Made by a program: the position numbers and the translations under genes. Under the pieces are notes generated by a model, which did not search any database, had not been told where the DNA came from, and worked only from the letters and a program-made list of their open reading frames with translations. Below, piece after piece: positions 6,408-24,000 of a DNA stretch of 24,000 nucleotides. Origin of the DNA: Serratia sp. UGAL515B_01. Its GTDB lineage: Bacteria > Pseudomonadota > Gammaproteobacteria > Enterobacterales > Enterobacteriaceae. The stretch spans positions 3,011,766 through 3,035,765 of the forward strand of contig NZ_CP109901.1 of assembly GCF_033095805.1 (NCBI RefSeq). The letters run 5' to 3'. Position 1 is the first letter of the stretch, and every line of letters starts with the position of its first letter.

Positions 6408-6741
6408 TTTTTTAATGCCTTGAATGAAATATTTTTATTTTTTGAATTATAACAAGTCATCTAAGCTTAGTTCCAACTGAACGCTGCAGGTAGCGATTTG
6501 AGCACAGAGCAATGTATAGCCACTCCTTGGTTATTTTTGCTGTATAACATTGCTGATAAGTGGAGGAAACGGGTGATTTTTGCAGCTCAAAAGAGACTAT
6601 TTCTGCCTCACTCGTTTGAAAATCAGGAGCTAAACTCAGTAAGTTCTTATTTTGCTATACATCTGGTGGTTAAAAGCCGCTCCCAGTGTGGAGTCCAACG
6701 GAAAGTTGTGGGATGATTAGCCAGCTTTTTAGGGGGCGGAG

Positions 6742-7062: not shown

Positions 7063-7065
7063 CGC

Positions 7066-7773: not shown

Positions 7774-7782
7774 GGAGCGCAT

Positions 7783-8256: not shown

Positions 8257-8259
8257 CAG

Positions 8260-9306
8260 ATGGATATGGCAAATCTGACCTGGCTACATGGCAAGCCACA
8301 AGCCACCGGTGTGTTGAAAGCCAAACCAGAAGACTTTTTCGTCGTTGAGGATTTAGGCTTCGTACCAGATGGTAAAGGGGAACATCTGCTGGTGAATATC
8401 CGAAAAAACGGCTGCAATACCCAGTTTGTCGCCGACGCTCTGGCTAAATTCGCCAGTATACATCCCCGTTCGGTCAGCTACGCAGGATTGAAAGATCGTC
8501 ATGCGGTAACAGAGCAATGGTTTTGTCTCCACTTACCGGGTAAAGATTCACCGGATCTTACACAGTTTGTGCTCGAAGGTTGTGAAGTGCTGCAAGCTGC
8601 CCGCCATTTACGCAAGTTGCGTATTGGCACGTTGAAAGGTAATTATTTCACCGTGGTATTGCGACATATCAGCGACCGCAACGAGGTTGAACAACGTCTA
8701 CAAGCCATTGCTAAAAGTGGTGTACCCAATTATTTTGGCAGTCAGCGATTTGGCCACGGTGGAAATAACCTGACCTTAGCGAGACGCTGGGCTAAAGACG
8801 AGATCCGCGTCAAAGAGCGCAACAAACGCAGTTTCTATCTTTCAGCCAGCCGTAGCGCGCTGTTTAACGCTATCACCAGCCAGCGCCTGGCCAATAATCA
8901 GCAAAAAACGTTGATGGATGGGGATGTTTTGCAACTGGCTGGGCGTGGTAGTTGGTTTGTGGCCAAAACGGAAGAACTGAACAACTTGCAACAGCGGTTA
9001 GAAGCTGGCGAACTGATGATTACTGCCCCGTTACCTGGAGACGGTGAGCCAGGAACCGCAGCGGAAGCACTTAACTTTGAACAGCAGTGCTTATTACAAC
9101 AGCCAGAATTACTCGCGCTTTTAAAGCGCGAGCGCGTTGAGCCGGCTCGCCGTGCACTGTTGTTGCAACCGCAGAAACTGCTGTGGAACTGGTGGGATGA
9201 TGCCACCGTTGAATTGCGTTTTTGGTTACCAGCAGGCAGTTTTGCCACCAGCGTAGTGCGCGAAATCATACAACAGAACAATGGTGAAGCGGATATTACG
9301 GAATAA
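8260..9306 (+). CDS. truD: tRNA pseudouridine(13) synthase TruD
   Basis: Colinear with E. coli TruD as recalled ([69 protein letters not shown]). Confidence 0.95.
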
Positions 9307-9565
9307 TTTAGTTGATGTTATTGATGTGGTGATAGGCGTTATTAAACATGAGCACGAAATTTTTCATCGTCATTCCTTTAACCTGCAAAGGCAAATTTTA
9401 GGCGTCCATTTGCATGATACGCATCTGCATGCACGCTATCTGTCGGGGACAAAAGTACCTTCGCAGTTATGTGGCGTTATTCAGTTCGAGCACATCTGTA
9501 TGAGCGAATAGCGTTTTAAACGGGTAACGATTAAGAGCGTTAGAGCCTGTCTTGAGCTCATTTCT

Positions 9566-9783
9566 TCATGTCTGGGATAGCCGGCCATTGGGCCTACTTG
9601 GAACGTTAAACTTGACCAGTATACGAGAAAGCGTATTAACGTAAGTCTCTTCAACTGAATCGTACTTTTTCACGTCGTCAAATGAACGACTAAAGGCTTC
9701 TCTTAAATCTCGTTCTTTGCTAGAGATGTCGTCGTTACCAACTCTTTGATAAAAAAAACAAAGATTGATACCGACTCAATCAT
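9566..9783 (-). pseudogene. Remnant or frameshifted small ORF of unknown function inside the truD-surE insertion
   Basis: A 62-codon open frame (YQRVGNDDISSKERDLREAFSRSFDDVKKYDSVEETYVNTLSRILVKFNVPSRPNGRLSQT*) has no start codon. An ATG at 9783-9781 sits in another frame and would join it only if the A8/T8 run at 9751-9758 were 9 nt long. No SD and no recognisable family. Confidence 0.3.
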
Positions 9784-9970
9784 GTTGGTTACATAGCTTC
9801 AATGCCACAATAACTACAACGCTTGCCTTGCTGCCCCAACCTCATCACAATAAAGAAAAGGACATATTGGACTCACTCTTGAAAAGAACAATAAAAACAG
9901 ATACATATGTAAATACAGTTCGGAATGTAGTTTTCTTTTTTATTATGATAAAAAATCTTTTACATTCAAT

Positions 9971-10732
9971 ATGAAAATATTATTGAGTAATGATGACGGC
10001 GTCAGCGCACCGGGTATCCAGATACTGGCAGCGGCACTGCGTGAGTTTGCCGAAGTGCAGGTTATAGCCCCGGATCGTAACCGTAGTGGGTCCTCTAATG
10101 CGCTGACATTGGAGTCACCACTGCGTACCCAGTCTTTTCCTAATGGCGATATTGCAGTCCAGCATGGAACCCCCACCGACTGCGTTTACCTTGGAGTTAA
10201 TGCTTTGATGCTCCCAAAACCCGATATGGTGATTTCAGGAATCAATACCGGGCCTAATTTGGGGGATGATGTTATCTATTCCGGTACTGTGGCTGCCGCG
10301 ATGGAAGGCCGTCATTTGGGCTTGCCGGCTATTGCCGTATCACTTAATGGTGATCACCACTATGATACAGCGGCGGTGATCACCTGCCGCTTGCTGCGCG
10401 CATTACAGCGCAACCCATTGCCTTCAGGTAGAATCTTCAACATTAACGTACCCGATTTGCCTTTGACGCAACTGAAAGGAATACGCGTGACTCGCTGTGG
10501 AAGCCGATATCCCGCCAACAAGGTATTCAGCCAGAAGGACCCACACGGTCAGAAATTGTATTGGATAGGCCCTCCAGGAGAGAAATTTGATGCAGGTCCA
10601 GATACTGATTTCGCAGCAGTGGACCAAGACTACGTTTCCGTAACGCCCTTACAGGTCGATTTAACAGCTTATGGGACACAGAATGTGTTAGCAACTTGGT
10701 TAGCCGAGGCAGAGGTTTTCGGGGAATGTTAA
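9971..10732 (+). CDS. surE: 5'/3'-nucleotidase SurE
   Basis: [20 protein letters not shown]...[14 protein letters not shown]...[10 protein letters not shown]...[25 protein letters not shown]; colinear with E. coli SurE. Confidence 0.95.
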
Positions 10733-11352
10733 AAAAACACATGCAAAAATTGCTGACGCAGTTACGTCAGCAAGGGATAAGGGATGAACTGTTGCTTAAG
10801 GCAATTGAAGAAGTCCCCCGCGAACGTTTTGTTGACGAAGCGTTAGCCCACAAAGCCTACGAAAATACGGCATTGCCTATTGGTTCGGGGCAGACAATTT
10901 CCCAGCCTTATATGGTAGCGCGCATGACCGAACTGCTAAGTTTGCAGCCGACTTCCAGAGTTCTCGAAATCGGTACAGGTTCTGGATATCAGACTGCTAT
11001 CTTGGCACATCTGGTACAGCACGTCTGCTCTGTTGAGAGGATTAAGGGGCTTCAGTGGCAAGCAAAGCGCCGTTTGAAGCAACTTGATTTGCACAATGTC
11101 TCTACCCGCCATGGTGATGGCTGGCAAGGTTGGTCATCGCGTGGCCCTTTTGATGCAATCATCGTAACAGCCGCTCCCCCTGAAATTCCCCAAGCACTAA
11201 TGCAACAGTTAGATAACGGTGGTATTTTGGTGTTGCCTGTTGGCGAACAGACGCAGATACTTCAATGTATTCAACGGCGTGGTGATGATTTTTCTGTTAA
11301 TTCTGTTGAGGCCGTGCGCTTTGTTCCCCTGGTGAAAGGTGAACTGGCTTAA
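10726..11352 (+). CDS. pcm: Protein-L-isoaspartate O-methyltransferase
   Basis: Starting at the ATG at 10726 gives 208 aa, matching E. coli Pcm in length and N-terminal register ([18 protein letters not shown] vs MVSRRVQALLDQLRAQGI). It has the SAM motif [18 protein letters not shown]. The gene overlaps the surE stop by 7 nt. Confidence 0.93.
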
Positions 11353-11488
11353 AAACGATTCGATCCGGGCTGTGCCCAAGTTACCTGAAATTCAGCGGCA
11401 CCGCCAAGTAACAGACCCCATAAACACAGAACCTAAAATATCGCAGGTATGGTTTAAAAACGATGGGTAGTAATTGTTTTATTATGTA

Positions 11489-11525
11489 GCAGTACCAATA
11501 TGGTCACACAATTGGCACTGCTTTT
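11489..11525 (+). terminator. Rho-independent terminator candidate downstream of pcm
   Basis: GCAGTACCAAT (11489-11499) pairs with ATTGGCACTGC (11511-11521): 10 bp plus one A/C mismatch, with an 11-nt loop. TTTT follows at 11522-11525. Confidence 0.5.
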
Positions 11526-11687
11526 GAATCTCTGACGGGAAATCTACTGGTATTCAGTGATCGGTCAGGGAAACCCTTCTTCTTGAAGCTGAGGTAACAC
11601 TGTACTCCAAGAATTTGAAGTTGTAGCGAGAGGCAATTGGGTGCATGTTATCGCCATCCTCCAATACGCTAGGGCTTTAAAAGCACT

Positions 11688-11696
11688 TGGTATAAT
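11688..11696 (+). promoter_or_regulatory. Extended -10 promoter candidate for nlpD
   Basis: TGGTATAAT (the TGnTATAAT pattern) lies 64 nt upstream of the nlpD ATG. There is no good -35 hexamer, which is tolerable for an extended -10 promoter. Confidence 0.35.
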
Positions 11697-11759
11697 GCTC
11701 AGCTACGCTGTAAGGGTATTTTTTGGAAATAACACTGATATTGCTGTCATGGGGGAAGC

Positions 11760-12752
11760 ATGAATACGGGAAGCCCAATGATTACTTTAGGCCGGGTTGC
11801 GGTGTGTACGGTATTAAGTTTGTGGTTGGCAGGTTGTTCGAATAATAATTCTACCTCGGCACCTATTAGCAGCGTTGGTAGCGGCGGTAACGACGCTGCA
11901 ACAGTATCCAGTAATGCGGGGCGTATTGTTTACAATCGTAGTTATAGTGAGATCCCTAAGGGGAGCTACAGCGGTAACACCTATACCGTTAAGCGTGGAG
12001 ACACACTATTCTATATTGCGTGGATCACCGGTAACGATTTTCGAGATCTAGCACAGCGCAACAATATTCCTCAGCCGTATAACCTGGAAGTAGGTCAAAC
12101 CATTAAAATTGGTAATGGCTCTGCCGGGAGTAGTGGCGGTATGCTGGCTTCGACAAATTCGAGCAACGGGACTGTACCAAAGCCACCTTCAAGTCATCAG
12201 ATACAAACTACAACGGTTGATTCTCAATCAACTAACGCGTATTCTGGTAACTCAGGTAAACAGAATGTAGGTAAAATGTTACCTTCATCAGGTGCGGTCG
12301 TGACAGGTTCTGCCGCCGCTCCTGTTACCGCGCCAGCTGCGGCACCTCCGGTGAGCAGCACCGCCAGCAACAGCACTCCAGTGAGTAGTTGGAGATGGCC
12401 AACTGACGGTAAGATCATTGATAACTTCTCTTCATCGGAAGGAGGGAACAAAGGTATCGATATCTCTGGCACCCGTGGGCAGCCTATTTTTGCTACCGCC
12501 GATGGTCGTGTAGTTTATGCAGGCAACGCTTTACGGGGTTACGGTAACCTAATCATCATTAAGCATAATGATGATTACCTGAGTGCCTACGCCCACAACG
12601 ACACAATGCTGGTCCGGGAACAACAAGAAGTGAAGGCGGGGCAAAAAATAGCAACGATGGGAAGCACCGGAACCAGTTCAGTACGTTTGCATTTCGAAAT
12701 TCGCTACAAGGGGAAATCCGTAAACCCGCTGCGTTATCTTCCGCAGCGATAG
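11760..12752 (+). CDS. nlpD: Murein hydrolase activator lipoprotein NlpD (LysM plus degenerate M23 domain)
   Basis: Lipobox LWLAGCS, LysM domain ([29 protein letters not shown]), low-complexity linker, and M23 blocks ([59 protein letters not shown]). It sits directly upstream of rpoS. Confidence 0.92.
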
Positions 12753-12806
12753 ATTGGGCAGAGTGTGTTGCATTCTGCTTGTAGTATCACGGGTAGGAGC
12801 CGCTTT

Positions 12807-13805
12807 ATGAGCCAAAATACGCTGAAAGTTAACGAGTTACATGACGATGCAGATTTCGACGAGAATGCCATGGAAGCCGAATCACTCGACGAAAAAGAAC
12901 TGGTAGAAGACGACACCATCGAGAACGATTTAGCTGATGATGAGCTGTTGTCTCAAAGTGTTACCCAACGCGTATTGGATGCAACGCAGCTCTATCTGGG
13001 CGAAATTGGTTATTCACCTCTACTGACTGCAGAGGAAGAAGTCTATTTTGCACGGCGCGCTCTGCGCGGAGACGTACCATCACGCCGACGCATGATAGAA
13101 AGCAACCTGAGACTGGTAGTGAAAATTGCCCGTCGTTATGGCAATCGCGGCCTTGCACTGCTGGACCTCATTGAAGAGGGAAATCTCGGCCTGATACGTG
13201 CGGTTGAAAAGTTTGATCCAGAACGCGGTTTCCGTTTTTCTACTTATGCAACTTGGTGGATACGTCAAACAATAGAACGGGCAATCATGAACCAAACCCG
13301 GACTATTCGTTTGCCAATCCATATCGTTAAAGAGCTGAATGTTTATTTACGCACCGCGCGTGAGCTTTCTCACAAGCTGGATCACGAACCAAGTGCTGAA
13401 GAGATTGCGGAGCAACTCGACAAACCGGTTGATGATGTCAGCCGTATGTTGCGCTTGAACGAACGTATCACTTCTGTTGATACGCCGCTGGGGGGTGATT
13501 CAGAGAAAGCGCTGTTGGATATTCTAGCAGATGATAAAGACAATGGGCCTGAGGACGTGACTCAAGACGACGACATGAAACAAAGCATCGTTAAATGGTT
13601 GTTCGAATTGAATGCCAAACAGCGTGAAGTGCTGGCTCGTCGTTTCGGTCTGTTGGGTTATGAAGCGGCAACGCTGGAAGATGTGGGCAGTGAGATCGGT
13701 TTAACCCGTGAACGTGTCCGCCAAATCCAAGTTGAAGGTTTACGCCGTCTGCGTGAAATTTTACAACTGCAGGGTTTGAGCATCGAGGCACTGTTCCGCG
13801 AATAA
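12807..13805 (+). CDS. rpoS: RNA polymerase sigma factor RpoS (sigma-38)
   Basis: The ATG at 12807 is preceded by AGGAG and gives 332 aa beginning [14 protein letters not shown]. Sigma-70 family regions are present: 2 ([19 protein letters not shown]), 3 and 4 ([28 protein letters not shown]). The 14-codon extension from 12765 was rejected. Confidence 0.96.
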
Positions 13806-13829
13806 ACTTTCCTTAGCCAAAGTAAAAAT

Positions 13830-13852
13830 CCACCTCTTGAAGAGGTGGCTTT
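13830..13852. terminator. Bidirectional hairpin, either the rpoS terminator or the right-end subterminal hairpin of the IS
   Basis: CCACCTCT (13830-13837) pairs with AGAGGTGG (13841-13848) across a 3-nt loop. It is flanked by aaaaat on one side and cttt on the other, so a U-run follows on either strand. It starts 24 nt after the rpoS stop. Confidence 0.55.
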
Positions 13853-13886
13853 AAATGGGGCTCCCTAGAAGGGAGCCTTGTCCGTT

Positions 13887-14324
13887 TTAATCCCGCAACA
13901 ACCCCATCTGCTGTTCGTATTCTTGGTCCTTCTTATCCTGATGCCTCACATAACGCCTTATAATTTCTTCGTTCACACCAACCGTGTCAACAAAGTAGCC
14001 CCTTGCCCAAAAGTGATTCCCCCAAAGTTTCTTCCGTATATGTGGGAATTTGTTGTAAAGGCGAATTGCACTGCGTCCTTTCAGGACGCCCATTAACGTG
14101 GATATCGAGAGTTTAGGGGGCACCATCACAACCAGATGAACATGATCTGATTGCACATTCAATTCCAATATCTCGCAATCTTTCATATTGCACAGTATGT
14201 AAATTGAACGATAAAACTCTTTCCCTACTACTCCTGTGAGGATTTTGTAACGATACTTTGGCGTCCAAACCAAGTGGTATTTACAACGCCAGAACACATG
14301 TGCTGAACTTCTATAACTGCTCAT
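13887..14324 (-). CDS. tnpA: IS200/IS605-family Y1 (HUH) transposase TnpA
   Basis: HUH motif SDHVHLVV and catalytic Tyr context HFWARGYFVDTVG. The N-terminus MSSYRSSAHVFWRCKYHLVWTPKYR is typical of IS200/IS1541 TnpA. I prefer the ATG at 14324, which has AAGGA upstream; the ORF-track start at 14375 adds 17 unlikely residues. Confidence 0.92.
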   Translation of the reverse strand: MSSYRSSAHVFWRCKYHLVWTPKYRYKILTGVVGKEFYRSIYILCNMKDCEILELNVQSDHVHLVVMVPPKLSISTLMGVLKGRSAIRLYNKFPHIRKKLWGNHFWARGYFVDTVGVNEEIIRRYVRHQDKKDQEYEQQMGLLRD

Positions 14325-14412
14325 GTCAGTGATTTCCTTCTTACTTGTGGTGAGTAAGCTGGAATTTTCTGGCATGGGCTTTCTTCAGGCTAGAGCCTCA
14401 CAGGAACAATCA

Positions 14413-14431
14413 CCACCTCCCAAGGAGGTGG
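14413..14431. other. Left-end subterminal hairpin of the IS (terminator-like)
   Basis: CCACCTCC caa GGAGGTGG, lying 89 nt upstream of the tnpA ATG. It differs by one base pair from the hairpin at 13830-13848. Confidence 0.55.
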
Positions 14432-14516
14432 TTTAGGGCTGACAACACTTAATACCAAACAAAACTGTTTATCCCTTATCTTGCGGGAAATTTGTGTTTC
14501 TTATGCCTGATTTAAC

Positions 14517-17072
14517 CTAAACTAGACTTTTCAGTCGGTAAATCCACTCCAGTGCTTGCCGTGGCGACAGAGCGTCAGCATCTAATGCCTCCAATGCTTC
14601 TAATGCCGGGGAAACCTCTTCATTCAGTAGCGTCATCTGAGTAGTATCCGCCTTACCGGCAGCAGCTTGGCTGGACATCGTCTCCAGTTCACGTAACTTC
14701 TGGCGCGCACGCTTAATCACATCACGAGGCACACCGGCCAATGCCGCAACTGCCAATCCATAACTTTTACTGGCTGCGCCATCTTGCACACTGTGCATAA
14801 AAGCAATCGTATCACCATGTTCCAGAGCATCTAGATGTACATTGACCACGCCTTCTATTTTTTCTGGCAGCGTTGTCAGTTCAAAGTAATGGGTAGCAAA
14901 TAATGTCATCGCTTTGATCCGGCCCGCCAGATTTTCGGCACAAGCCCAAGCAAGGGAAAGCCCATCATAAGTTGAAGTACCGCGACCAATTTCGTCCATT
15001 AGCACTAGGCTGTTCTCAGTAGCATTGTGAAGGATATTAGCAGTTTCGGTCATCTCAACCATGAAGGTAGAGCGACCAGAGGCTAAATCATCAGCAGCGC
15101 CCACGCGAGTAAAAATACGATCCACCGGACCGATAGTCGCTTTGACTGCTGGCACAAAACTACCAATATGTGCCATCAAGACAATCAACGCAATTTGCCG
15201 CATATAGGTACTTTTTCCGCCCATATTGGGTCCGGTAATGATCAGCATACGGCGCTGCGGAGAAAGTGAAACCGGGTTGGCAATAAACGGCTCGCTCAAA
15301 ACCTGCTCGACCACTGGATGACGACCATCAACAATGTGGATACCCCGTTGTTCACTGATGGTTGGGCAAGCGTAATTCAGCGTTTCCGCACGTTCGGCAA
15401 GATTAACCAGTACATCCAGTTCCGCCAATGCCCCTGCGCTCTGCTGTAATGCCTCAAGATGAGGTAACAACAAATCAAACAGTTCGTCATACAACCCTTT
15501 TTCTATCGACAGTGCCTTCCCTTTTGACGTCAGCACTTTGTCTTCATATTCCTTCAACTCAGGAATGATGTAACGCTCCGCATTCTTCAGAGTTTGGCGG
15601 CGAACATAGTGGATCGGGACCAGATGACTTTGCCCGCGACTGACCTGAATATAATAACCGTGCACGCCGTTAAAACCGACCTTAAGGGTGTCCAGGCCCA
15701 ACTTCTCACGTTCACGGATCTCCAGGCGGTCAAGATAATCGCTGGCGCCGTCTGCAAGTGCACGCCACTCATCCAGTTCTTCGTTATAGCCAGGGGCAAT
15801 TACACCGCCGTCACGAACCAGAACAGGAGGCGCTTCAACAATAGCACGTTCAAGTAGCGTCTTCAGTTCATCAAAATCACCGATCTGAGACAGAAGTTTT
15901 TGTACATGGGCCGTTTCTGTACTTTTCAGCAATGCGCAGATATCCGGCAATTGCTGAAAGGCATGGCGCATACGGGCAAGATCACGAGGACGCGCGGTGC
16001 GCAATGCCAATCGTGCAAGAATTCGCTCAAGATCGCCAACCTGACGCAGCGGTTGCTGTAGGTCAGCGCTTAGATTCTGCAGTGTGATGATCGCCTGCTG
16101 TCGATTGTTCAGTACAGCCATGTCGCGCGTAGGCATATGCAGCCAGCGTTTGAGCATTCGGCTACCCATTGGGGTAACGGTGCGATCAAGTATCGCAGCT
16201 AGAGTATTTTCACTTCCCCCGGAAAGGTTTTGAGTAATCTCCAAATTACGACGTGTTGCCGCATCCATGATAATACCGTCTTGCTGGCGCTCCATGGAGA
16301 TACCACGGATATGTGGCAGTGAAGTGCGCTGAGTGTCTTTGACATACTGCAATAGACAGCCCGCTGCACGTAATGCAAGATCGGCCTGTTCGACACCAAA
16401 TCCGTTGAGATCACGGGTACCAAATTGTAGATTCAGCTGTTGGCGTGCAGTTTCCAGCTCAAACTCCCACAGTGGACGACGGCGAAGGCCATGGCGCTGT
16501 TCAATCAGCACCATTTGTTCGAACGTTTCTGGATATAGTAATTCAGCCGGGTTAGTGCGTTGCAATTCAGCTGACATAGTTTCGAGATCTTCCGGTTCGG
16601 CAACTCTGAAACAGCCAGAACTGAGATCCAAAGTGGCATAACCAAAACCGCGACTATCTTGCCATATAGCTGCCAGCAAATTATCTTGGCGTTCTTGCAG
16701 CAAGGCTTCGTCGGTGATCGTGCCTGGCGTCACTATGCGTACAACTTTACGCTCTACCGGACCTTTACTGGTAGCAGGATCGCCAATCTGTTCACAAATC
16801 GCAACCGACTCACCAAGTTGAACTAACTTGGCGAGATAGTTTTCCACGGCATGGTGCGGAACGCCTGCCATTGGAATAGGTTCCCCTGCTGAAGCACCGC
16901 GCTTGGTCAGAGAGATATCCAACAATTGGGATGCACGTTTAGCATCGTCGTAAAACAGCTCGTAGAAATCCCCCATACGATAGAAGAGTAAGATTTCTGG
17001 ATGTTGCGCCTTAAGGCGCAGGTATTGCTGCATCATTGGCGTATGCGAATCGAAAGTTTCGGTTTTTGTCAT
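14517..17072 (-). CDS. mutS: DNA mismatch repair protein MutS
   Basis: 851 aa with the mismatch-binding motif [12 protein letters not shown], Walker [14 protein letters not shown], Walker [17 protein letters not shown] and C-terminal dimerisation region. Confidence 0.97.
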
Positions 17073-17137
17073 AACGCTACCGCTTCTAATCCATTGAATT
17101 TAAATTTCATTGTGATTCTGATTGTTATCATTAGGTA

Positions 17138-17431
17138 TCACTTAGTCTCATTAAAAACCACTAAACGTTGCTTGCTGTTAGCACAAGCCTGAACGCAGGC
17201 TGCTATGTTGGCTATCGTATAATGTCTCCACTCAAACTCAAAACCTACGCCTAACGAGCTAAAAATGGATTTATAACTAATAAGATCAATATATTGACCA
17301 TAAAAATGGATAGCAGACGCAGAGTAGGGCAAATCTTTAGCATTCAAAGCAGTAAAAATGATGAAGCCAACGGACAAAAGCCAAACTGATATCAGTGAAA
17401 ATCGAGGCTTGCTTATTTTCACTACGATCAT
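17138..17431 (-). CDS. Hypothetical small protein with a signal-peptide-like N-terminus
   Basis: 97-aa ORF in AT-rich DNA. The hydrophobic N-terminus (LISVWLLSVGFIIFTALNA/KD) looks like a Sec signal. No SD, no recognisable family. It ends 65 nt upstream of the mutS ATG. Confidence 0.3.
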   Translation of the reverse strand: MIVVKISKPRFSLISVWLLSVGFIIFTALNAKDLPYSASAIHFYGQYIDLISYKSIFSSLGVGFEFEWRHYTIANIAACVQACANSKQRLVVFNETK

Positions 17432-17473
17432 TACGACTTTTTTCTAACGCTATACTAGCCCAGTGAGCAATAG

Positions 17474-18734
17474 GCTGTCGTAGGTAAAAATTGGAAGCTT
17501 CCCGCAACTACGCTTGCAACGGCTCAAGTTAGGTTGCAAGAACTGAAGCAAATCAGAAATGAAGGACGCTGTCCGGCCACTGAGTTGAAAGAAAGGAAGC
17601 AAAGGCTGTTAGAGGAAAGCCATTCGCGGTATCTAAGCAGTTCCTGCACGATTTATTCACCCGAGATCGTACCAAGTATCTCAGTCGAACTGACCGTGTA
17701 AGTTACTTGACCAACATTTTCAACAAACGTAAACGTATGACCTTTGATGACATGATCGGGCAGGCGATCAACCGTGGCTGTCAGGTGAAGCATCAATGGT
17801 CAAAACGCGATATACCAAACAAGCCATTCCGAAACTTGTTGAAAACAGTATGGGGCAATCTAGAACCGCTGCATATCAACCTTGATGCGTTGCGGCAATA
17901 TGTGGACACTCACCACTCAGCTAAAAATATGATGTTCTACCGCAATTTCCTGTCTCATTTGGCAGAGGTAGGCGTAGATCTGATTTCAGACACGCCACTG
18001 GTTGTTGCGTACCGGCAGTCATATAAATCAGCTAAAATAGGTGGTCGCTCGTTCGAAATCGGCACTAGCTTCCAAAGTTTGCCCTCCAAGATGAAATGGG
18101 CGTGTCTTGCTCGTGGTTACAACTACGATATAAAGAGGTGCCAGCTTGAGATCCTGCGCCATGAACTACAGTCTATCGACGTTTCAGACCGTAACTTACG
18201 GCTTCTGGATTCAAAAGTGATCTGCAAGGTTTTAGGGGTAGATGAAGCGTTGGTTAAGCAGTTTAGGTATGCCAGTGTGTTCAACTCTGGTTATGTCAGC
18301 CTTTCCTTCAGAAGTGCGACTGTCCGCCTGCTGAGAAAGGAGTTCGGACGCTCTAAAGCCAAACTATTCTCCTGCGCTGGCTTGAACACTTGGAGCCACT
18401 CAAGCACGATCTGGCTAGGTTACTGGACGTTTATGAAGCTACTGGTAAAACTAACCGCTATGGAAAGTGTGTTACAAATGCGGTGGGGCAGACCTTCAAA
18501 TGTACTTACAAGTGCGTGGCAACAGGTACACGGCGGAAGAGTGATGTAATGCGCCGCAAGCTGCTGGCTCATATGCTGCAAGGGTTGGAAAGCTTGGCGG
18601 TCTACCAATTTGTACGCGATCATCCAGGTCTGATATGCGCGTTAGAGCACGATGGGTTTATTTCTTACCGCTTGATTGATGAAAGTTGGCGGCATCCATA
18701 TTTGAAGATTGTCTTGAAAAATCAAGCATCGTAG
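17474..18734 (+). pseudogene. Frameshifted gene for a minimal family-A-like (Pol I/T7-type) polymerase; candidate mobile-element replication protein
   Basis: Three consecutive open frames overlap: frame 2 at 17474-17701, frame 1 at 17584-18549 and frame 0 at 18357-18734. The first has no start codon. The motifs occur in PolA order: A-like YNYDIKRCQLEILRH (18121-18162), B-like FRYASVFNSGY (18265-18297), YGKCVTNAVG (compare GYVxTxxG), LAHMLQGLES (compare the QGxAAD region) and C-like ALEHDGF (18639-18659). The spacings are about 47 aa from A to B and about 127 aa from B to C, close to Pol I. Confidence 0.55.
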
Positions 18735-18938
18735 CAATTTACCTTGGATGAGCAACGACTAGATCGCTGTCCCCCGTCATACTACAAGTTACAGGGGTTT
18801 TGGCTGCATTTTTGGCCTATCCAAGGGCCTAGTACCTTTGGGGGAGGTGCCACTGCAAGCGGTGTTAAACTCGTTTCCCGACAAAGCACCTATCCGCCCT
18901 AATTACAGAGGAAAAAGGAAAGATTTAAAAGCCATAAC

Positions 18939-18973
18939 CCCGGTCAATTCAGTTTTTACCGGGCTTTTACTTT
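18939..18973. terminator. Weak bidirectional hairpin between the polymerase-like pseudogene and the convergent immunity-like ORF
   Basis: CCCGGT (18939-18944) pairs with ACCGGG (18958-18963) across a 13-nt loop. cttttacttt follows on the + strand and ttatggctttt on the - strand. Confidence 0.35.
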
Positions 18974-19322
18974 AAAGTTGTTGATAACGCTCATCTTGTA
19001 AAATAAGTGGTTGTATTTCTTCCTCCCACATACGCTTCTGATATGATTGTCCCTCCGTTGGCTCTGTTCGGTTATGAATACAGTCCTTAATCGCTTTTAC
19101 AGCCAAATTAAACTCTTCTTTACTCAACTCACTAAAACTTATCTGATCCAAGGGTAGGTACATCATTATCTTTTCGTGTATATCCGGATGATTCGCCTGC
19201 AATGCCTCATCGAACAATGTTTCTAAAGCATTAGAGGCCGTTCGGTTAAGTCCTACCGTAAGACCCCTTTCACCATAGTTGTTATTATATGCCTTGCACC
19301 CTATATCAAAAAAAGAACCCAT
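18972..19322 (-). CDS. Small acidic protein, immunity/antitoxin-like partner of the upstream 402-aa ORF
   Basis: The ATG at 19322 lies 2 nt after the upstream TGA (19327-19325). It is preceded by GAGGTG embedded in the last codons of the upstream gene. An alternative GTG at 19328 would overlap the stop. The product is 116-118 aa, rich in Glu/Asp, with predicted helical character and no family I can name. Confidence 0.6.
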   Translation of the reverse strand: MGSFFDIGCKAYNNNYGERGLTVGLNRTASNALETLFDEALQANHPDIHEKIMMYLPLDQISFSELSKEEFNLAVKAIKDCIHNRTEPTEGQSYQKRMWEEEIQPLILQDERYQQL

Positions 19323-19324
19323 AA

Positions 19325-20533
19325 TCACCTCATAATAATAAATTTTTCTTGTTGATTTTTAGGTAATGTTTTTATGTAATCCATAAACACTTTCTGGTTA
19401 GATGGTGTCAATACACTAAAATCAACAGGAACTATGTCCGCTTTCCCTAAATGGTCAAGGATTTGTTTTTGACCAATTGGGATTTCCCCATCAGTTCTCG
19501 TCACAGTCATGTTTTTCTCAAAGAACTTGTTTAGTCCATCAACTTCTTTTTGGGATAAGTTCTTTGTTGTATACATAAAATCAACAGTTTTTCCTGCATT
19601 AGGACCACTACTTATAATAAAATCAGCAGTTTTCCCCCCAGTATCAGGTGCTCTTTCTAGGGGCCCTAGCTTATTTTCCAGTCTTGCCGCAGCCGCGGCT
19701 TCTGCTGGATTGTACTTCCCATTGCCATTTATATCTGGTGTATTCAAGCGTTTTTGGCTTTCCAGAGGAGTGGAGTTTATTTTTGTTTCATTAATCCCAT
19801 CGGCATTCTTGGTGAGTGATAGCTTTGAACCCATGCGCCTTGCACCAAGTAGGGCACTAGCAGCCACTGCAGCACCTGCCGTTTTCTCATTCAGTACCTG
19901 ATCGAACCCTTTAGCAGCATCACCCCCCAGCTTTTTAGCAGTATCTGCAAACATTTCAGGGTTCTGGTTATAAATGCCTCCAGCAGCCAGTAAGCGACCT
20001 GCATTAGCGCTGTTTATCGTTCTCAACGGCGCTTGTGCTTGTACTGGGCTTTCTCCGCGCCTGAATTGATTCATTGGTGTTGGACGCGGTTTTCCGTTTG
20101 TTGTCCGGTAGTCTCGCCTAAGGACTGACTGATCGTATTGAGCAATAATCTTTTTTGTCCCCTCAAAACGAAAAGCCATAGGGTCAGTGCAAACCAGCTT
20201 ACCGCCTTCATTGATATAAAACAGGTTTGCCGGGCCGTAGATATCACTCAACATCACCACATCACCGGAAAACACCATTTTTTCCAGTTTCTCTTTTTCA
20301 CGTAGGCCGCGTGAAGCAGTGCGGTGCTGAACAGTACGATCTTCACGCATATTGATGATATAGCGACCCGTACCATAACCCTCATCAAACACATACTCTC
20401 GACAAATCCGTGACCAAGCCCTATGAGCACTGATTATGCGTTCAAACTCTTCAGGGGCAAGATTATCGTTCGGTAGATAGTACAAATAGATACCGGGCAA
20501 ACTCAGGCTCACTGTTACCTCCGTGTTAAGCAT
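19325..20533 (-). CDS. Three-part protein of unknown function (globular N-domain, Ala/Gly/Asn-rich linker, about 100-aa C-terminal toxin-like module)
   Basis: 402-aa intact ORF. An in-frame stop at 20581-20579 limits any upstream extension, and no SD precedes the ATG. The C-terminal module (EAAAAARLENKLG...TADFIISSGPNAGKTVDFMYTTK...) has an E / D / D...K layout reminiscent of PD-(D/E)xK-type toxin domains (weak). It is coupled to the downstream small ORF. Confidence 0.7.
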   Translation of the reverse strand: MLNTEVTVSLSLPGIYLYYLPNDNLAPEEFERIISAHRAWSRICREYVFDEGYGTGRYIINMREDRTVQHRTASRGLREKEKLEKMVFSGDVVMLSDIYGPANLFYINEGGKLVCTDPMAFRFEGTKKIIAQYDQSVLRRDYRTTNGKPRPTPMNQFRRGESPVQAQAPLRTINSANAGRLLAAGGIYNQNPEMFADTAKKLGGDAAKGFDQVLNEKTAGAAVAASALLGARRMGSKLSLTKNADGINETKINSTPLESQKRLNTPDINGNGKYNPAEAAAAARLENKLGPLERAPDTGGKTADFIISSGPNAGKTVDFMYTTKNLSQKEVDGLNKFFEKNMTVTRTDGEIPIGQKQILDHLGKADIVPVDFSVLTPSNQKVFMDYIKTLPKNQQEKFIIMR

Positions 20534-20634
20534 TCGTAAAATGGACTTAACACTAGCACACTCAGAAAGCCTGGAAAATCATAAAACATCGTTAGGGTAT
20601 CAGGTAGTAACACGCTGTCATTAGTCCTGCTGCG

Positions 20635-20662
20635 AGTCAATGACCTTCTTAACTCATTGACT
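20635..20662. promoter_or_regulatory. Perfect 9-bp inverted repeat (operator or hairpin candidate)
   Basis: AGTCAATGA (20635-20643) and TCATTGACT (20654-20662) are separated by 10 nt. The repeat lies 20 nt downstream of the integrase-remnant stop and about 100-130 nt upstream of the 402-aa ORF. No U-run follows on either strand. Confidence 0.3.
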
Positions 20663-20681
20663 TAAACACATCAACACAAAA

Positions 20682-20870
20682 TCACTTTTTCAACGTATCG
20701 AGATAATCCGCCCATTTTTGCAGCCAAACCTTACACTCAGCCTCGTAGCGGTAGAGATCGTAAGTGCCTTCGATACCCTTACGTGAATGGCCTAAAACGG
20801 CTTCAGCGACCTCACTGGGACATCCAAGACGTGCCAAGCCAGTACGCACTGTTCGGCGTATGTTCTGATA
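20682..20870 (-). pseudogene. C-terminal remnant (about 62 codons) of a P4/CP4-57-type tyrosine integrase
   Basis: The minus-strand translation is QNIRRTVRTGLARLGCPSEVAEAVLGHSRKGIEGTYDLYRYEAECKVWLQKWADYLDTLKK*. This is the R-box, the LGH-box and the catalytic-Tyr tail of P4-type integrases. There is no start codon, and the frame is closed by a stop at 20880-20882. It is not in the ORF track. Confidence 0.8.
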
Positions 20871-20882
20871 TGTAGAGTTTTA

Positions 20883-21269
20883 TTATATATTACCAATCAT
20901 CTGTGATATCTCATGTATTCTTTTTTCAGTCATGTCAGAAATGCAGTTGTTTATTGCAAATGAATGAGTTCGGCTGTTTTCTTCTATATGAAAAGCGTAA
21001 ACATCACATGTGGAATTCATGTATTCAATCCATTTTGATTGTGACATCTTAACTTTTTCCAGTAATTTATTTCCTAAAACAATATCCGCAGAATAGCTTT
21101 TGTTTATCTCACTAATATATAACTCGTACTCTTTTTTTAGCTTTAAACTAACCTCATCTTTTTTTTGATAAGAACATACATAAGCCTGATTGGAATCAGT
21201 AATGTTATTACAATCGTCTTGAGCGTAAACCCCAAAGGAAAAAAAGCATATAATTATAAATTTCTTCAT
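20883..21269 (-). CDS. Secreted DUF1311 / LprI-like (lysozyme-inhibitor family) protein
   Basis: Signal peptide MKKFIIICFFSFGVYA/QDD. The four-Cys pattern and the helix signature (C..I.....AYVC ... LKKEYELYISEI ... QSKWIEYMNSTC ... NNCISDMTEKRIHEI) are typical of DUF1311. The SD GGAGAG lies 7 nt upstream. The gene is very AT-rich. Confidence 0.75.
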   Translation of the reverse strand: MKKFIIICFFSFGVYAQDDCNNITDSNQAYVCSYQKKDEVSLKLKKEYELYISEINKSYSADIVLGNKLLEKVKMSQSKWIEYMNSTCDVYAFHIEENSRTHSFAINNCISDMTEKRIHEISQMIGNI

Positions 21270-21330
21270 CTCATACTCTCCAAGTATTTAATTCTTTGCC
21301 TTCCCGGTTCATCATTTAGTGGTAGCGTAC

Positions 21331-21924
21331 TCAAACCGGAGTAACAATGATGCGTGAGCAGATCTGCCTCATTAATGCCATTTGATGACTGAAAATAATT
21401 ATGCTCAGCTTGCGCTGCTGGGATTCGATAATCAATCGCTGCCAGATGTCTTTTTGAATAGGGGGATCGAGTTGCGCAGTGACTTCATCAGCAATCAGCA
21501 ATCGCGTACGCGGATCAAGTGCACGCAAAAGCGCTATGCGTGCCAGTTCACCGCTAGAAAGCTGGGCGGGTTTACGCATCAACCACTCTGGTTTGACATG
21601 GAGATATCCCATCTGCTTCTCATCTGGATGCCAGGCGTCGCCTAGCGCCTCTCCTGTGGTGCGATAGGGATTAAATGTCTGTTCAGGATGCTGGGGTACT
21701 AACTGGACGGGACAATAACCTTGCTTCGGCAAAGGGAGACCATCCAGAGTAATTTGTCCCTGTCGATATGTCTGCCAGCCCGCTAACACGCGGCCTAAAA
21801 TTGTTTTTCCGTAACCGCTCGGTGCGGAAATACCTAACCGCTCACCGGTTGCTAAACTAAAAGAAAAATTTTGCCAGAGCAGGCGTTCATCCTGCTCAAT
21901 TGTTAGTTGAGAAACACAAAACAT
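21331..21924 (-). CDS. ABC transporter ATP-binding protein (short DppF/NikE-like subunit)
   Basis: Walker A APSGYGKT, signature LSSGELARIALLRAL, Walker B LLIADEVTAQLD. I prefer the ATG at 21924, which shares one base with the upstream TAA (TAATG coupling). The product is 197 aa. Confidence 0.9.
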   Translation of the reverse strand: MFCVSQLTIEQDERLLWQNFSFSLATGERLGISAPSGYGKTILGRVLAGWQTYRQGQITLDGLPLPKQGYCPVQLVPQHPEQTFNPYRTTGEALGDAWHPDEKQMGYLHVKPEWLMRKPAQLSSGELARIALLRALDPRTRLLIADEVTAQLDPPIQKDIWQRLIIESQQRKLSIIIFSHQMALMRQICSRIIVTPV

Positions 21925-22730
21925 TACGTACTCCCTGCACAACCTGACAGGCTCTCATCAGGAAACAAGCTGTAGTATTCCGGTAGGGCCAACCAGTGCC
22001 GACGTAGCGTCACACTTCCGCCTCCGTTTTTTAATTCAGAAATCGAGATATCATCGCTAATCCGACCTCCATTGAGCGCGACGATGCGGTCGGCATAACG
22101 CGCCGCCAATGACAAATCATGTGTTACCCATAATACGCCTGCCCCTTGAGCACTCAGATCGCGTAGTTGTTGTAATAGCTGGCATGCCAATGGTTCATCA
22201 AGCCATGCGGTAATTTCATCCGCCAGGATGTAGTGCGCGCCACCTAATGCTGCATTACAGGCCAACACACGCTTTGCCATTCCACCGGATAACTGCTTGG
22301 GATATTTCAGCAGAATATCTGTCTGAAGCTGAAAGTGTTTGATCTGTTGCTCAAGCGCTAGCACGCAAGAATGCTTTCCGCTCAATTGCAGACTACGCTT
22401 CAACTGGGTGCCCACTTTCAGTAAAGGATTGAGCGAACTTACCCCTTGTGGTACGTAGCACAGCGTGTTTCCACGTAGCTTTTTACACTGCTCCAAATTA
22501 AGTAATTTACCTTCGAGCCTGATCTCTCCGCTCATACGCAAATTTTCCGGCAGTAGGGCCAAAGCACTTTGCAGCAAGAGGCTTTTGCCTTCGCCACTGC
22601 CGCCCACCAAGGCTGTAATTTCACCGCGCTCTAAGCTCAGATTAATATCGCTGAGGATCGGTGATAGCTGTTTATGTCCGAACCAGTTGTAGTAAACATT
22701 TTCAACAGAGACATGCCTGAAATTTAACAT
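21924..22730 (-). CDS. ABC transporter ATP-binding protein (DppD/NikD-like subunit)
   Basis: Walker A GGSGEGKS, signature LSGGMAKRV, Walker B YILADEITAWLD. I prefer the ATG at 22730 (MLNFRHVSVENV), which overlaps the permease stop by 7 nt. Confidence 0.9.
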   Translation of the reverse strand: MLNFRHVSVENVYYNWFGHKQLSPILSDINLSLERGEITALVGGSGEGKSLLLQSALALLPENLRMSGEIRLEGKLLNLEQCKKLRGNTLCYVPQGVSSLNPLLKVGTQLKRSLQLSGKHSCVLALEQQIKHFQLQTDILLKYPKQLSGGMAKRVLACNAALGGAHYILADEITAWLDEPLACQLLQQLRDLSAQGAGVLWVTHDLSLAARYADRIVALNGGRISDDISISELKNGGGSVTLRRHWLALPEYYSLFPDESLSGCAGST

Positions 22731-23536
22731 GATTGATTCCTCAACCACAGGTAGTGGATCGCACGAACACATTGATCAAACAGTAAAACAATCAACAAAA
22801 GCATCAGGCCGGGAAACACAGCCAACCACCAGCTCCCATTACTGAGAAAACGCAAAGCATCTGACAGCAAAATCCCCAGCGATGGTTCATGAGGAGCCAG
22901 CCCGAAACCCAGAAAACTTAGCGCGGCACTATGCAAGACCGCATGAGGGAACATCAGAAGAGTGCCAACGAACCACTGCGCCGATAACGCCGGTAGATAA
23001 TGAGTTCGCCAACAGTACCAACGACTATTCCCTATCCGCTGAGCCAGCGTTATGTAATCACTGGTGCGAATGCGTTGTGCTTCTGCACGAAGTATTAACG
23101 CCAGCTTTGGCCAGTGGGTTAAGGCGACGGCTATAACCACGCCTTGCTTACCGCCACCAACGGTAAAGCAGATTAAGACAAGTAATAATAAATGAGGTAA
23201 TGAAAGCAAAGTGTCGATAACTAACCGTAGCGTCTGATCGATAGAGTGATGGATTAAGGTAAGGCTGGCGGCCAACATCGCAATGATCCCGCTGCATAAT
23301 GCTGCGCCAATACCAATTTGCAAACTGGTCAATGTGCCCTGAAAGCAACGCAACCACAGGTCACGTCCCATATTGTCGGTGCCAAACCAGTGCGCAGCAC
23401 TCGGTGGCTGATAGCGCGCTAGAAGATCGATCGGTATGTCTGCTGACAGCAAAGAAATACCATATGCGGTCAACAGACAGAGCAGTAAGGCGGACAAAGT
23501 AACGCGTAGCAAGGCTGGAACGGGATTATTTAACAT
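22724..23536 (-). CDS. ABC transporter permease (DppC/NikC-like)
   Basis: 270 aa, polytopic. It has the N-terminal HWFGTDNMGRDLW motif and the EAA-loop region (ITLAQRIGNSRWYCWRTHYLPAL) typical of peptide/nickel/opine-family permeases. The start shares one base with the upstream stop. Confidence 0.9.
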   Translation of the reverse strand: MLNNPVPALLRVTLSALLLCLLTAYGISLLSADIPIDLLARYQPPSAAHWFGTDNMGRDLWLRCFQGTLTSLQIGIGAALCSGIIAMLAASLTLIHHSIDQTLRLVIDTLLSLPHLLLLVLICFTVGGGKQGVVIAVALTHWPKLALILRAEAQRIRTSDYITLAQRIGNSRWYCWRTHYLPALSAQWFVGTLLMFPHAVLHSAALSFLGFGLAPHEPSLGILLSDALRFLSNGSWWLAVFPGLMLLLIVLLFDQCVRAIHYLWLRNQSC

Positions 23537-24000
23537 TATTTATGTTCCAAGATGCGGTTCATTCTTGCCAATAACCGCGTGGCGAGAGTATTGCCACAAA
23601 ATACCAACAAGGTACTAAACAGCACGATCCCCATTAGCAGAGGAATATCGCCGCGTAGCCCTGCGTCAATAGTGGCTTGCCCTAAGCCGGGATAGGCAAA
23701 TATTTTTTCTGCCAGTAAAGATCCGCCGAAAAATTCACCTATCGAAGCAAACTGCAGGCACAAAGCAGGAGTCAGCGCGTGGCGAAATACTTGCACGCGT
23801 AATAATGACCAACCTTTATCGCCCTGAGCCCGAGCATAGTGCACAAAATCACTGCTCATTACTTCAGCAATTTTTTCCCGTGTATGTAGCGCGATTTGTC
23901 CGAAGCCCATCAAGCTCAGCGCAATCATTGGTAGAATTAAATGATGGATGCGGTCGCTAATACTGGCGTCCTGCGCGTTACTGCCCGGTTGCCAAGCGCA
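23536..24000 (-). CDS. ABC transporter permease (DppB/NikB-like); 5' end outside the window
   Basis: The frame stays open upstream of the listed M at 23928 to the window edge (...ISDRIHHLILPMIALSLMGFG...). The EAA-loop-like region is DFVHYARAQGDKGWSLLRVQVFRHAL. Confidence 0.9.
   Translation of the reverse strand, partial: CAWQPGSNAQDASISDRIHHLILPMIALSLMGFGQIALHTREKIAEVMSSDFVHYARAQGDKGWSLLRVQVFRHALTPALCLQFASIGEFFGGSLLAEKIFAYPGLGQATIDAGLRGDIPLLMGIVLFSTLLVFCGNTLATRLLARMNRILEHK

Follow-up and report, generated by a model that had tools for sequence, protein, structure and literature searches.

A probable remnant of a mutS-targeting integrative island with a type VI-like toxin-immunity module in Serratia sp. 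UGAL515B_01

Islands whose tyrosine recombinases target and restore the 5' end of a conserved protein gene are known, the dusA-specific islands being one example. Here we examine the interval 17073-21330 of a 24,000-nt stretch of Serratia sp. UGAL515B_01 (NCBI RefSeq assembly GCF_033095805.1, contig NZ_CP109901.1, positions 3,011,766 to 3,035,765 of the forward strand; hereafter the window), which lies between mutS and a Nik/Dpp-type ABC operon, and which we read, with a probability of roughly 70%, as the immobilised remnant of a mutS-targeting integrative island that still carries a toxin-immunity module, a type VI-like effector. In location the interval matches the fhlA/mutS locus, which has been described as a 'highly variable mutS-proximal region' and as the hotspot housing Salmonella SPI-1, where att-like features were not apparent, and Shigella has been reported with two integrases between ygbA and mutS (PMC7232297). 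The first-pass annotation of this DNA had named the mutS-rpoS hotspot and regarded the cargo as sitting on the other side of mutS, but that upstream side is itself the hotspot already described as the fhlA/mutS locus (PMC7232297).

The closest described counterparts of the toxin are the PIX effectors of the T6SS (type VI secretion system), such as Pse3 and Pse4 of Pantoea agglomerans (Carobbi et al.), in which an N-terminal domain is followed by a dispensable homologous segment and a polymorphic toxin, and which are orphans with an adjacent immunity gene (bioRxiv 10.1101/2023.07.16.549128). Experiments showed that PIX binds VgrG and is both necessary and sufficient for secretion by the T6SS, and its co-occurrence with T6SS was put at 92% (bioRxiv 10.1101/2023.07.16.549128). 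Two further systems bear comparison, namely the Hcp-toxin fusions (Hcp-ET) of Enterobacteriaceae and the CdiA-CT/CdiI pairs of contact-dependent inhibition (CDI), to which we return below.

The case for a mutS-targeting island comes from intact relatives of the element, which alignment with related genomes placed at the corresponding chromosomal site in E. coli. Strain 536 has a 46-nt direct repeat (43/46) made up of the mutS ATG and first 14 codons, at L091 15945-15990 and 1129-1174, one copy at the true mutS start and the other at the far island end beside ygbA, and the identity ends exactly after ...CCCATGATGCA. STEC434 has a 32-nt repeat core (29/32) inside a 59-nt similarity to a foreign mutS start, and for the repeats of these islands the identity stops exactly after ...CATGATGCA. 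As these islands are bounded by 32-46 nt repeats of the mutS start, their attachment site is placed at the mutS 5' end; they appear to integrate into the conserved stretch that encodes HTPMMQ and to rebuild the mutS start. We take the distal copy to hold K-12-like codons with the native upstream region, and the functional mutS to hold island-derived codons and upstream DNA. Three properties of dusA-type islands thus recur, an integrase at the island edge that diverges from the target, repeats corresponding to the first codons of the target, and the supply of a new 5' end; the differences are that the target here is mutS and that the window element is a non-functional remnant.

In the window the homologous TGCTGCATCATTGGCGTATG is present once, within mutS (17026-17045), and the first ~15 mutS codons are the presumed attL core. 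The left edge of the island, which had been set at 17073, thereby moves into mutS itself (~17026-17072). The earlier remark that neither a tRNA nor a direct-repeat att site could be seen is borne out, as searches of the interval returned no tRNA, no Rfam family and no direct repeat at its flanks; the att site became apparent by comparison, once the intact copies had defined the ends. No second copy of the mutS start (TGCATCATNGGNGT...ATG region) occurs in 17100-24000, where the pattern hits only at two mismatches, that is at chance level, and the distal copy has either been deleted or lies beyond the window.

The association of this integrase with mutS extends well outside the window. The integrase-mutS junction is present in 35 of 5426 complete E. 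coli genomes, and homologues in the same place and orientation by mutS are found in Oceanospirillum beijerinckii (52%, full length), the marine gammaproteobacterium HTCC2143 and a Pseudomonadales metagenome-assembled genome (MAG), at distances from mutS (234, 339 and 315 nt, respectively) that compare with 234 nt in the window and 220 nt in STEC434. Integrase remnants were also seen upstream of mutS in Proteus faecis (L005 9664-9801), Mixta mediterraneensis (L002 9337-9528) and the relative with 90% MutS identity (L082); in Proteus, the ACACCAATGATGCA core recurs as a 14-nt copy 1.7 kb upstream, possibly an old attR. E. coli GPEC389 (L092, NZ_CM142810.1 1062000-1084000) presents a separate case: pphB directly adjoins the interior of a mutS-type island, tblastn found neither mutS nor the integrase within 22 kb, and the strain may have an island-associated mutS deletion, which makes it a candidate mutator. 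No description of a mutS-specific integrase was found in the literature searched.

The integrase itself is represented in the interval by two fragments. Our reference is the intact 430-aa tyrosine recombinase of E. coli STEC434 (int430), which stands 220 nt upstream of mutS and divergent from it, and which came to light when the interval was searched at the DNA level against E. coli genomes, the pseudogene described below pointing to the ygbA-mutS islands. It comprises Arm-DNA-bind_3 (PF13356, residues 10-95), Phage_int_M and Phage_integrase (PF00589, E = 8e-23) domains, so that similarity to it is similarity to a bona fide tyrosine recombinase with three recombinase domains. In tblastn, its residues 367-429 match 20873-20685 (-) at 62% over 63 aa (E = 6e-24), and the last ~62 codons of a P4-type integrase announced at first pass are thus real, amounting to 63 codons. 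This C-terminal fragment keeps RRTVRTG, LGH and a Y-containing segment (the conserved Arg, His and nucleophilic Tyr region), covers the last 35 positions of PF00589, matches PHROG 17497 (E = 4.5e-12) as well as the PHROG 1 integrase, and has matches in 124 plasmid records annotated 'site-specific integrase' or 'DUF4102'. The Pfam score of the 55-aa open reading frame (ORF) 20682-20849 is weak because the ORF is short. The C-terminus is not, as had been stated, the only part of the integrase in the interval: an N-terminal fragment beside mutS had been overlooked, in which int430 residues 66-105 match 17501-17617 (+) at 68% (E = 6e-10) and residues 1-82 match 17310-17531 (+) weakly in another frame (E = 0.002), both by tblastn. 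By tblastx, the same fragment matches the annotated DUF4102 coding sequence of E. coli 536 at 67% over 36 aa. An uninterrupted integrase gene is not present, since residues ~106-366 are gone, the pieces lie on opposite strands and the N-terminal fragment is frameshifted.

The second mark of an island is a pseudogene whose match begins no more than 7 nt from the end of the N-terminal integrase fragment, with the junction within 17611-17617. Its intact counterpart is a conserved island protein of ~490 aa (hyp490; the E. coli protein used here is hyp487): residues 126-368 match 17611-18363 at 51%, residues 367-487 match 18357-18719 in another frame at 64% (tblastn), and the E. coli VREC0864 homologue gives the same two-frame picture. 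The gene is indeed broken, as had been proposed, but the label 'polymerase-like' finds no support, for neither the fragment nor the intact E. coli homologue has a match in Pfam, NCBIfam, PADLOC or the PDB. Likewise, of the at least two frameshifts postulated one is clear (~18357-18399), the other lesions being the loss of the 5' end up to codon ~124 and an in-frame stop upstream. The pseudogene matches PHROG 30690, a family of unknown function, and phage searches with it returned only weak matches to hypothetical jumbo-phage proteins. In the E. coli ygbA-mutS islands of 536, STEC434 and GPEC389, the hyp490 homologue is located at the ygbA-proximal, far end. In the E. coli mutS islands it is followed by a convergent two-gene module made up of an Xre/MbcA/ParS-type antitoxin and a weakly TacA1-like neighbour; the window pseudogene is likewise followed by convergent genes, those for immunity and toxin, with a GC-rich hairpin, possibly a bidirectional terminator, between the pseudogene and the immunity gene. 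In VREC0864 (L088) the hyp490 gene lies in an integrase-bounded island at ychF, beside a retron St85 system. Across these loci (L088 at ychF; L091 and L093 at mutS), the gene recurs next to variable cargo that includes retron St85, reverse transcriptases, HipA and a restriction enzyme, which suggests that it marks a cargo hotspot of these islands.

From these pieces we propose the following course. A P4-type (Arm-DNA-binding) tyrosine recombinase would have inserted the island into the first ~15 mutS codons, the element supplying a replacement mutS start and upstream region and leaving the displaced original start at its far end; the recombinase would later have been destroyed, leaving its N-terminal piece beside mutS (+) and its C-terminal piece 3 kb away (-), while the ~490-aa gene was truncated and frameshifted and the interior was lost. 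Having lost its integrase and its interior, and with no distal att copy left in the window, the element is therefore immobile. The idea of an old element eroded from both ends holds in so far as this is the remnant of an integrative island, but the mutS-proximal end (att-like codons, spacer and integrase 5' part) was kept and it was the interior that disappeared. The spacer next to mutS would, in this course of events, still drive mutS expression from island-derived DNA.

The opposite strands of the integrase pieces are a difficulty for this account, because a single element needs an inversion and a deletion to produce them, or else the C-terminal piece came from a second element. Two routes can be drawn. 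A STEC434-type island could have undergone one deletion that fused integrase codon ~105 to hyp490 codon ~124, with the inverted C-terminus coming from another element; or a ychF-type layout (int, cargo, convergent hyp490) could have been inverted between int and hyp490 and then suffered a deletion. That two elements were successively integrated at or near mutS, a collapsed 536-type island and a second, inverted one, is a serious though somewhat doubtful alternative. It would explain why the N-terminal fragment shares its strand with the hyp490 remnant and meets it within 7 nt, as one deletion in the STEC434 arrangement (int(+) ... hyp487(+)) gives exactly this; several distinct types of hyp490-carrying island exist, and the two integrases reported between ygbA and mutS in Shigella (PMC7232297) would be a precedent. 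The fragments are, however, similarly related to one integrase (68% and 62%) and their residue ranges do not overlap, as expected of two halves of one gene, so that a single gene is mildly favoured. Moreover, site-specific tandem integration would place the second integrase on the same strand rather than inverted, and a ychF-type island, with hyp490 and int convergent and the cargo between them, also yields the window arrangement by a single inversion.

The acquired nature of the interval, as opposed to a core origin, is borne out by the nearest relatives. The closest available by MutS, Serratia sp. S1B (92%, L081) and GCA_033995365.1 (90%, L082), both align with the window across rpoS-nlpD-pcm-surE-truD-ispF-ispD-ftsB and mutS and stop at the mutS start; the interval's genes are absent from both, each has a different, unrelated gene set upstream of mutS, and neither has the ABC operon there. 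Nor do any of the interval's genes occur at eight more distant mutS loci (seven from Enterobacterales and one from Gilliamella). As the gene set is missing from the relatives, the DNA is accessory, and the foreign segment appears to span 17026-21270. Part of it is nonetheless shared, in that a 62-nt block of the integrase N-terminal fragment (17447-17507) is retained upstream of mutS in L082 (L082 9772-9833), and of the mutS-integrase spacer only the first ~78 nt align with this relative. The integrase remnants upstream of mutS in L082 and Proteus indicate that some of this DNA is old, and they are what could be said for the view that the whole interval is ancestral, fast-evolving intergenic or accessory DNA of the lineage with an incidental resemblance to integrases. 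That view is highly improbable and already contradicted by the data: the integrase matches reach E = 6e-24 and 6e-10, E. coli has intact islands bounded by att repeats at the same site, the gene content upstream of mutS in the relatives is wholly different, and the toxin cassette is chimeric, with distinct donors for its 5' and 3' parts.

Composition gives a more mixed picture. The interval was first described as AT-rich and unlike its flanks, and its composition is indeed distinct, with a GC content of 0.426 against 0.482 in the remaining window and 31% of 60-nt lines below 40% GC inside against 8% outside (Mann-Whitney p = 4e-7). The deficit is patchy, however. Low values are confined to the LprI gene (0.29), the C-terminal domain of the toxin (0.38), its immunity gene (0.39) and the 544 nt closest to mutS (17073-17616; 0.40). 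The DUF8093 domain (0.46), the pseudogene (0.47) and the integrase C-terminal fragment (0.50) do not depart from the genome level, so the term 'AT-rich island' holds only partly.

The working cargo that is left would be a two-gene interbacterial toxin module. Both genes of the toxin/immunity-like pair recognised at first pass are intact. The toxin gene starts at a GTG (20512) with GGAGG 6 nt upstream, and its homologues all begin MSLSLPG; the Shine-Dalgarno sequence of the immunity gene, AGGTGA, overlaps the toxin stop codon. The toxin has three parts, an N-terminal DUF8093 domain, a linker or pre-toxin segment and a C-terminal nuclease domain. For DUF8093, AlphaFold2 predicts an alpha/beta fold with pLDDT ~90 or above for residues ~10-150; a fold search with the toxin model, in which the C-terminal domain has low confidence, found no PDB or BFVD match at E <= 0.001. 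The family is small, with 60 clusters at 50% identity among 1.84 billion representatives (phmmer), nearly always in N-terminal position, and its named members come from Yersinia, Serratia, Erwinia, Mixta, Pantoea, Enterobacter and Atlantibacter. The linker is conserved across the family alignment. A further protein, P0032 of Serratia sp. UGAL515B_01, appears to be this genome's second DUF8093 toxin; it ends in Endonuclease_NS_2 and its linker is longer.

The C-terminal domain is homologous to the toxin domain of the CdiA-CT of Burkholderia pseudomallei E479. It matches PF18664 (CdiA_C_tRNase) at E = 8.5e-44 (149 bits against a cut-off of 26.5) and PDB entry 5J4A at E = 1.2e-20, and the 5J4A active-site residues E204, D229, D243 and H275 correspond to identical residues E278, D304, D318 and H361 when mapped by spacing. 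The fifth active-site residue, D285, could not be placed in the chain numbering, and a nearby D is conserved (D366). The window toxin would accordingly be expected to cleave tRNA, and an immunity gene lies downstream. The immunity protein matches nothing in Pfam or among the PDB chains, the E479 CdiI of 5J4A included.

A nearer relative is an orphan VENN-CdiA-CT of Dickeya fangzhongdai, to which the toxin domain is 88% identical and the product of whose directly downstream gene is 86% identical to the immunity protein; the 845-nt cassette of toxin domain and immunity gene (18966-19810) has 83% nucleotide identity to Dickeya and is thus shared with enterobacterial CdiA proteins. The 5' part (19840-20506), by contrast, has 68% nucleotide identity to a DUF8093 gene of Yersinia enterocolitica. 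With a Dickeya-like 3' part and a Yersinia-like 5' part, a recombination junction is placed at the linker/toxin boundary, ~19810-19840. The dN/dS values against the Dickeya copy (0.058 for the toxin domain, 0.063 for the immunity gene) indicate strong purifying selection, which agrees with the earlier suggestion that surviving genes of the island may be under selection. Because the Dickeya pair lies downstream of a filamentous-haemagglutinin (FHA)-type cdiA, one could regard the window genes as an orphan cdiA-CT/cdiI module kept as a recombination reservoir for contact-dependent inhibition. We reject this candidate, to which we give next to no credence, as already contradicted by architecture: similarity to CdiA begins only at residue 235; there is no VENN or PT-VENN motif, no DUF6862 or other cytoplasm-entry domain, no FHA repeat homology and no PF04829 or PF13332 hit; and the toxin has its own start codon, a strong Shine-Dalgarno sequence and a complete, folded N-terminal domain unrelated to CdiA. 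The ORF list for 13000-24000 shows no cdiB or cdiA either, and the stretch 6661-13806 aligns with core genes in the relatives.

The modules that the toxin shares with other proteins point to a type VI role. Its linker shares 62% identity with the one in a Citrobacter Hcp-toxin fusion, the BLASTP match being confined to residues 170-238, and 53% over 85 aa with the one in a PIX-HNH effector from IncHI2 plasmids. An Enterobacter DUF8093-HNH protein and a Citrobacter Hcp-ET are 65% identical over linker and HNH, with only the N-terminal domain differing, and the overall lengths are similar (~380-400 aa); in place of Hcp (PF05638), the former has DUF8093, whose predicted alpha/beta fold is not the Hcp-like beta-barrel. 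The resemblance to PIX effectors is equally close in plan: an N-terminal domain of ~140-150 residues, a homologous segment of ~60-70 residues from the same sequence family, a polymorphic toxin, an orphan position, and an immunity gene immediately downstream (its ATG 4 nt past the toxin stop, where the PIX criterion is within 25 bp). The C-termini of DUF8093 relatives (Ntox46, a Tse6-type NADase; DUF2235/Tle1; HNH; colicin DNase; Endonuclease_NS_2) overlap the PIX repertoire, which includes HNH, colicin-type nucleases, CdiA-CT-like toxins, DUF2235 and NADase. All three DUF8093 relatives checked are orphans between core genes, each with an adjacent small gene. One of the loci, Y. pseudotuberculosis L094 10001-12632, has a DUF8093-Ntox46 gene followed by three tandem Tsi6 immunity genes, so that the immunity gene is amplified within an orphan module between core genes. 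In P0310, an 812-aa partial protein of an Enterobacteriaceae MAG, DUF8093 stands N-terminal to DUF6531/RHS repeats, the usual slot of PAAR and other loading domains.

The PIX-HNH toxin deserves a remark of its own. WP_000902298.1, from the Enterobacter cloacae IncHI2 plasmid NZ_CP123599.1 (L087 3001-4578), recurs in 446 other plasmid records. With a YrhA-family gene 10 nt downstream, it is found on 433 conjugative plasmids whose hosts are Enterobacter, Salmonella, Klebsiella, Citrobacter and E. coli; the single record inspected has an IncHI2A replicon. A type VI-style effector thus rides on large plasmids.

By analogy, the N-terminal domain would load the toxin onto a secreted type VI component, whether VgrG, PAAR or Hcp, and the tRNase would be injected into neighbouring cells and cleave their tRNA, siblings being protected by the immunity protein. 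We lean towards such type VI delivery with guarded confidence. The PIX authors recognise their domain by RPS-BLAST at E <= 1e-9 with at least 70% coverage of Pse3 residues 1-140; the window domain is DUF8093, not PIX, and T6SS secretion of PIX effectors has been demonstrated by experiment, whereas that of DUF8093 proteins is deduced from analogy. The part of the PIX preprint available to us has a genus list that names Serratia and not Yersinia, Erwinia or Mixta, and among the PIX-dataset entries listed there none of six DUF8093 accessions appears.

Further points weigh against our reading. On the island side, the right boundary is undefined, and the LprI gene or even the ABC operon could be cargo or unrelated; the attL of the window is presumed by homology alone, because the second copy is missing. 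On the side of delivery, a 132-sequence DUF8093 profile compared with PIX (the first 44 residues of Pse3 from the preprint structure file and two full PIX domains from plasmids) gave insignificant results (hmmsearch, 1.2 bits; hhalign, probability 0.2-1.6%, E = 0.03-0.34), and weak co-linear motifs (IIxP, G.VV.L) may at most reflect a very remote kinship of the two domains. Hcp (PF05638) has no hit in the window toxin and DUF8093 is not detectably homologous to it; with homology to neither PIX nor Hcp detectable, delivery is therefore deduced from shared modules only. Type VI genes are missing from the ORF list for 13000-24000, the stretch 6661-13806 aligns with core genes, the source genome may have no T6SS, and the literature searched yielded no secretion data for any DUF8093 protein. 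Finally, the toxin-immunity pair fills the slot downstream of hyp490 in which E. coli mutS islands have a toxin-antitoxin (TA)-like module.

This last point leads to the main rival explanation of the pair, according to which it is not exported and works inside the cell as a toxin-antitoxin, addiction or abortive-infection module that stabilises the island or counters phage; its weight comes from the TA genes and defence systems that occupy this slot in E. coli islands. Retrons or reverse transcriptases are found there in other island versions, no secretion genes lie near the pair, and orphan effectors and defence systems have been reported to alternate in the same hotspots (bioRxiv 10.64898/2026.08.01.741415). 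The architecture argues otherwise, as a 230-residue N-terminal domain plus linker found across at least six unrelated toxin domains is a hallmark of exported polymorphic toxins and not of TA systems. Hcp fusions and PIX effectors trade linker and toxins with this family, one relative combines Ntox46 with Tsi6 as in a type VI effector-immunity pair, another is fused to Rhs repeats, and PADLOC gave no hits. We therefore consider an intracellular role unlikely, and prefer an exported effector with its cognate immunity protein.

Beyond this pair, the interval contains the DUF1311 gene named at first pass, which is confirmed as an LprI-family member (PF07007, E = 1e-8, 36 bits against a cut-off of 22, residues 26-120) and is the most AT-rich gene of the interval. 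Its product is 38% identical to that of an LprI-family gene which, on the small Enterobacter plasmid pJBIWA005_5, overlaps the stop codon of a gene for a muramidase resembling the pesticin C-terminus, and it may confer orphan immunity to a bacteriocin or effector, possibly a pesticin-like muramidase. The small signal-peptide ORF also listed at first pass, of 97 aa, fared worse: antisense to the degenerate integrase 5' region and the mutS-integrase spacer, and with no match in Pfam, NCBIfam, PHROGs, PADLOC or related loci, it is probably spurious, and we rejected it as a real gene because no library or related locus holds a homologue. The spacers 17073-17320, 18720-18975, 20520-20700 and 21260-21340 have no similarity to E. 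coli islands or to the Yersinia and Dickeya loci, and a promoter and terminator scan gave fewer sites than shuffled controls and was not used. The features are collected in Table 1.

Table 1. Features of the interval and its surroundings, in window coordinates.
Feature	Position	Strand	Basis or remark
rpoS	12765-13805	+	in window
tnpA, IS200/IS605 family, 162 aa, intact	13887-14375	-	PF01797, E = 1.6e-41
mutS	14517-17072	-	
First ~15 mutS codons, presumed attL core and island left edge	17026-17072	-	homology to E. coli att repeats
mutS-integrase spacer, presumably island-derived, putatively with present mutS promoter	17073-17305	.	234 nt
97-aa ORF, probably spurious	17138-17431	-	antisense to degenerate integrase 5' region and spacer
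Integrase N-terminal fragment, residues ~1-105, Arm DNA-binding region; degenerate, frameshifted	17306-17617	+	tblastn
Pseudogene of conserved ~490-aa island protein, 5'-truncated at codon ~124, frameshifted ~18357-18399	17611-18734	+	tblastn
GC-rich hairpin CCCGGT...ACCGGG, possible bidirectional terminator	18939-18963	.	read from sequence; uncalled by consensus terminator scan
Immunity gene, 116 aa	18972-19322	-	ATG 4 nt after toxin stop
Polymorphic toxin, intact, three parts	19325-20512	-	402-aa ORF 19325-20533; true start GTG 20512
Toxin C-terminal domain, E479-type CdiA-CT PD-(D/E)XK tRNase, residues 235-402	19325-19831	-	PF18664
Linker / pre-toxin segment, ~65 residues (~166-234), TINS.AGRLLAAGG.YN.N...LGGDA..GFDQVLNE.TAG	19832-20038	-	
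Toxin N-terminal domain DUF8093 (PF26362), residues 8-155	20039-20512	-	precomputed Pfam of window protein
Integrase C-terminal fragment, residues 367-430	20685-20873	-	tblastn
LprI/DUF1311 periplasmic protein, 128 aa, signal peptide	20883-21269	-	PF07007
Nik/Dpp-type ABC operon	from 21331	-	

Elsewhere in the window, the IS200/IS605 tnpA is inserted in the rpoS-mutS gap, the polymorphic spacer that is classical for this region; here that spacer is otherwise short, only ~700 nt. An ERIC-like intergenic repeat at ~930-1029, with the core AGTGAATCCCCAG...CTGGGGTAAGCG, is 78% identical to a non-coding Dickeya stretch (L086 9246-9345), and a further AT-rich dip (9501-10000, GC 0.37) lies outside the interval among the conserved surE-pcm-nlpD genes.

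For this genome alone the consequences are modest: a dead island has left it a single competitive weapon, perhaps together with an orphan immunity gene. Of wider interest are the attachment site at the mutS start and the DUF8093 carrier. It is conceivable, and we put it forward tentatively, that the remnant belongs to an unrecognised, widespread family of mutS-start islands that replace the promoter and first codons of mutS, and that DUF8093 is a third carrier, beside Hcp and PIX, for one type VI linker-toxin pool. The toxin itself shows a single pool of linker-toxin cassettes common to three N-terminal carriers (Hcp, PIX and DUF8093), into which a CDI tRNase/immunity cassette has moved, and this makes DUF8093 a candidate marker of effectors yet to be discovered in Yersinia, Serratia, Erwinia, Mixta and Enterobacter. 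A mutS-specific recombinase makes the question of integration at fhlA/mutS testable and, if the family is real, would provide a concrete mechanism for the plasticity of that locus, coupling island carriage to mismatch-repair expression; such islands possibly rewire mutS expression or promote mutS loss.

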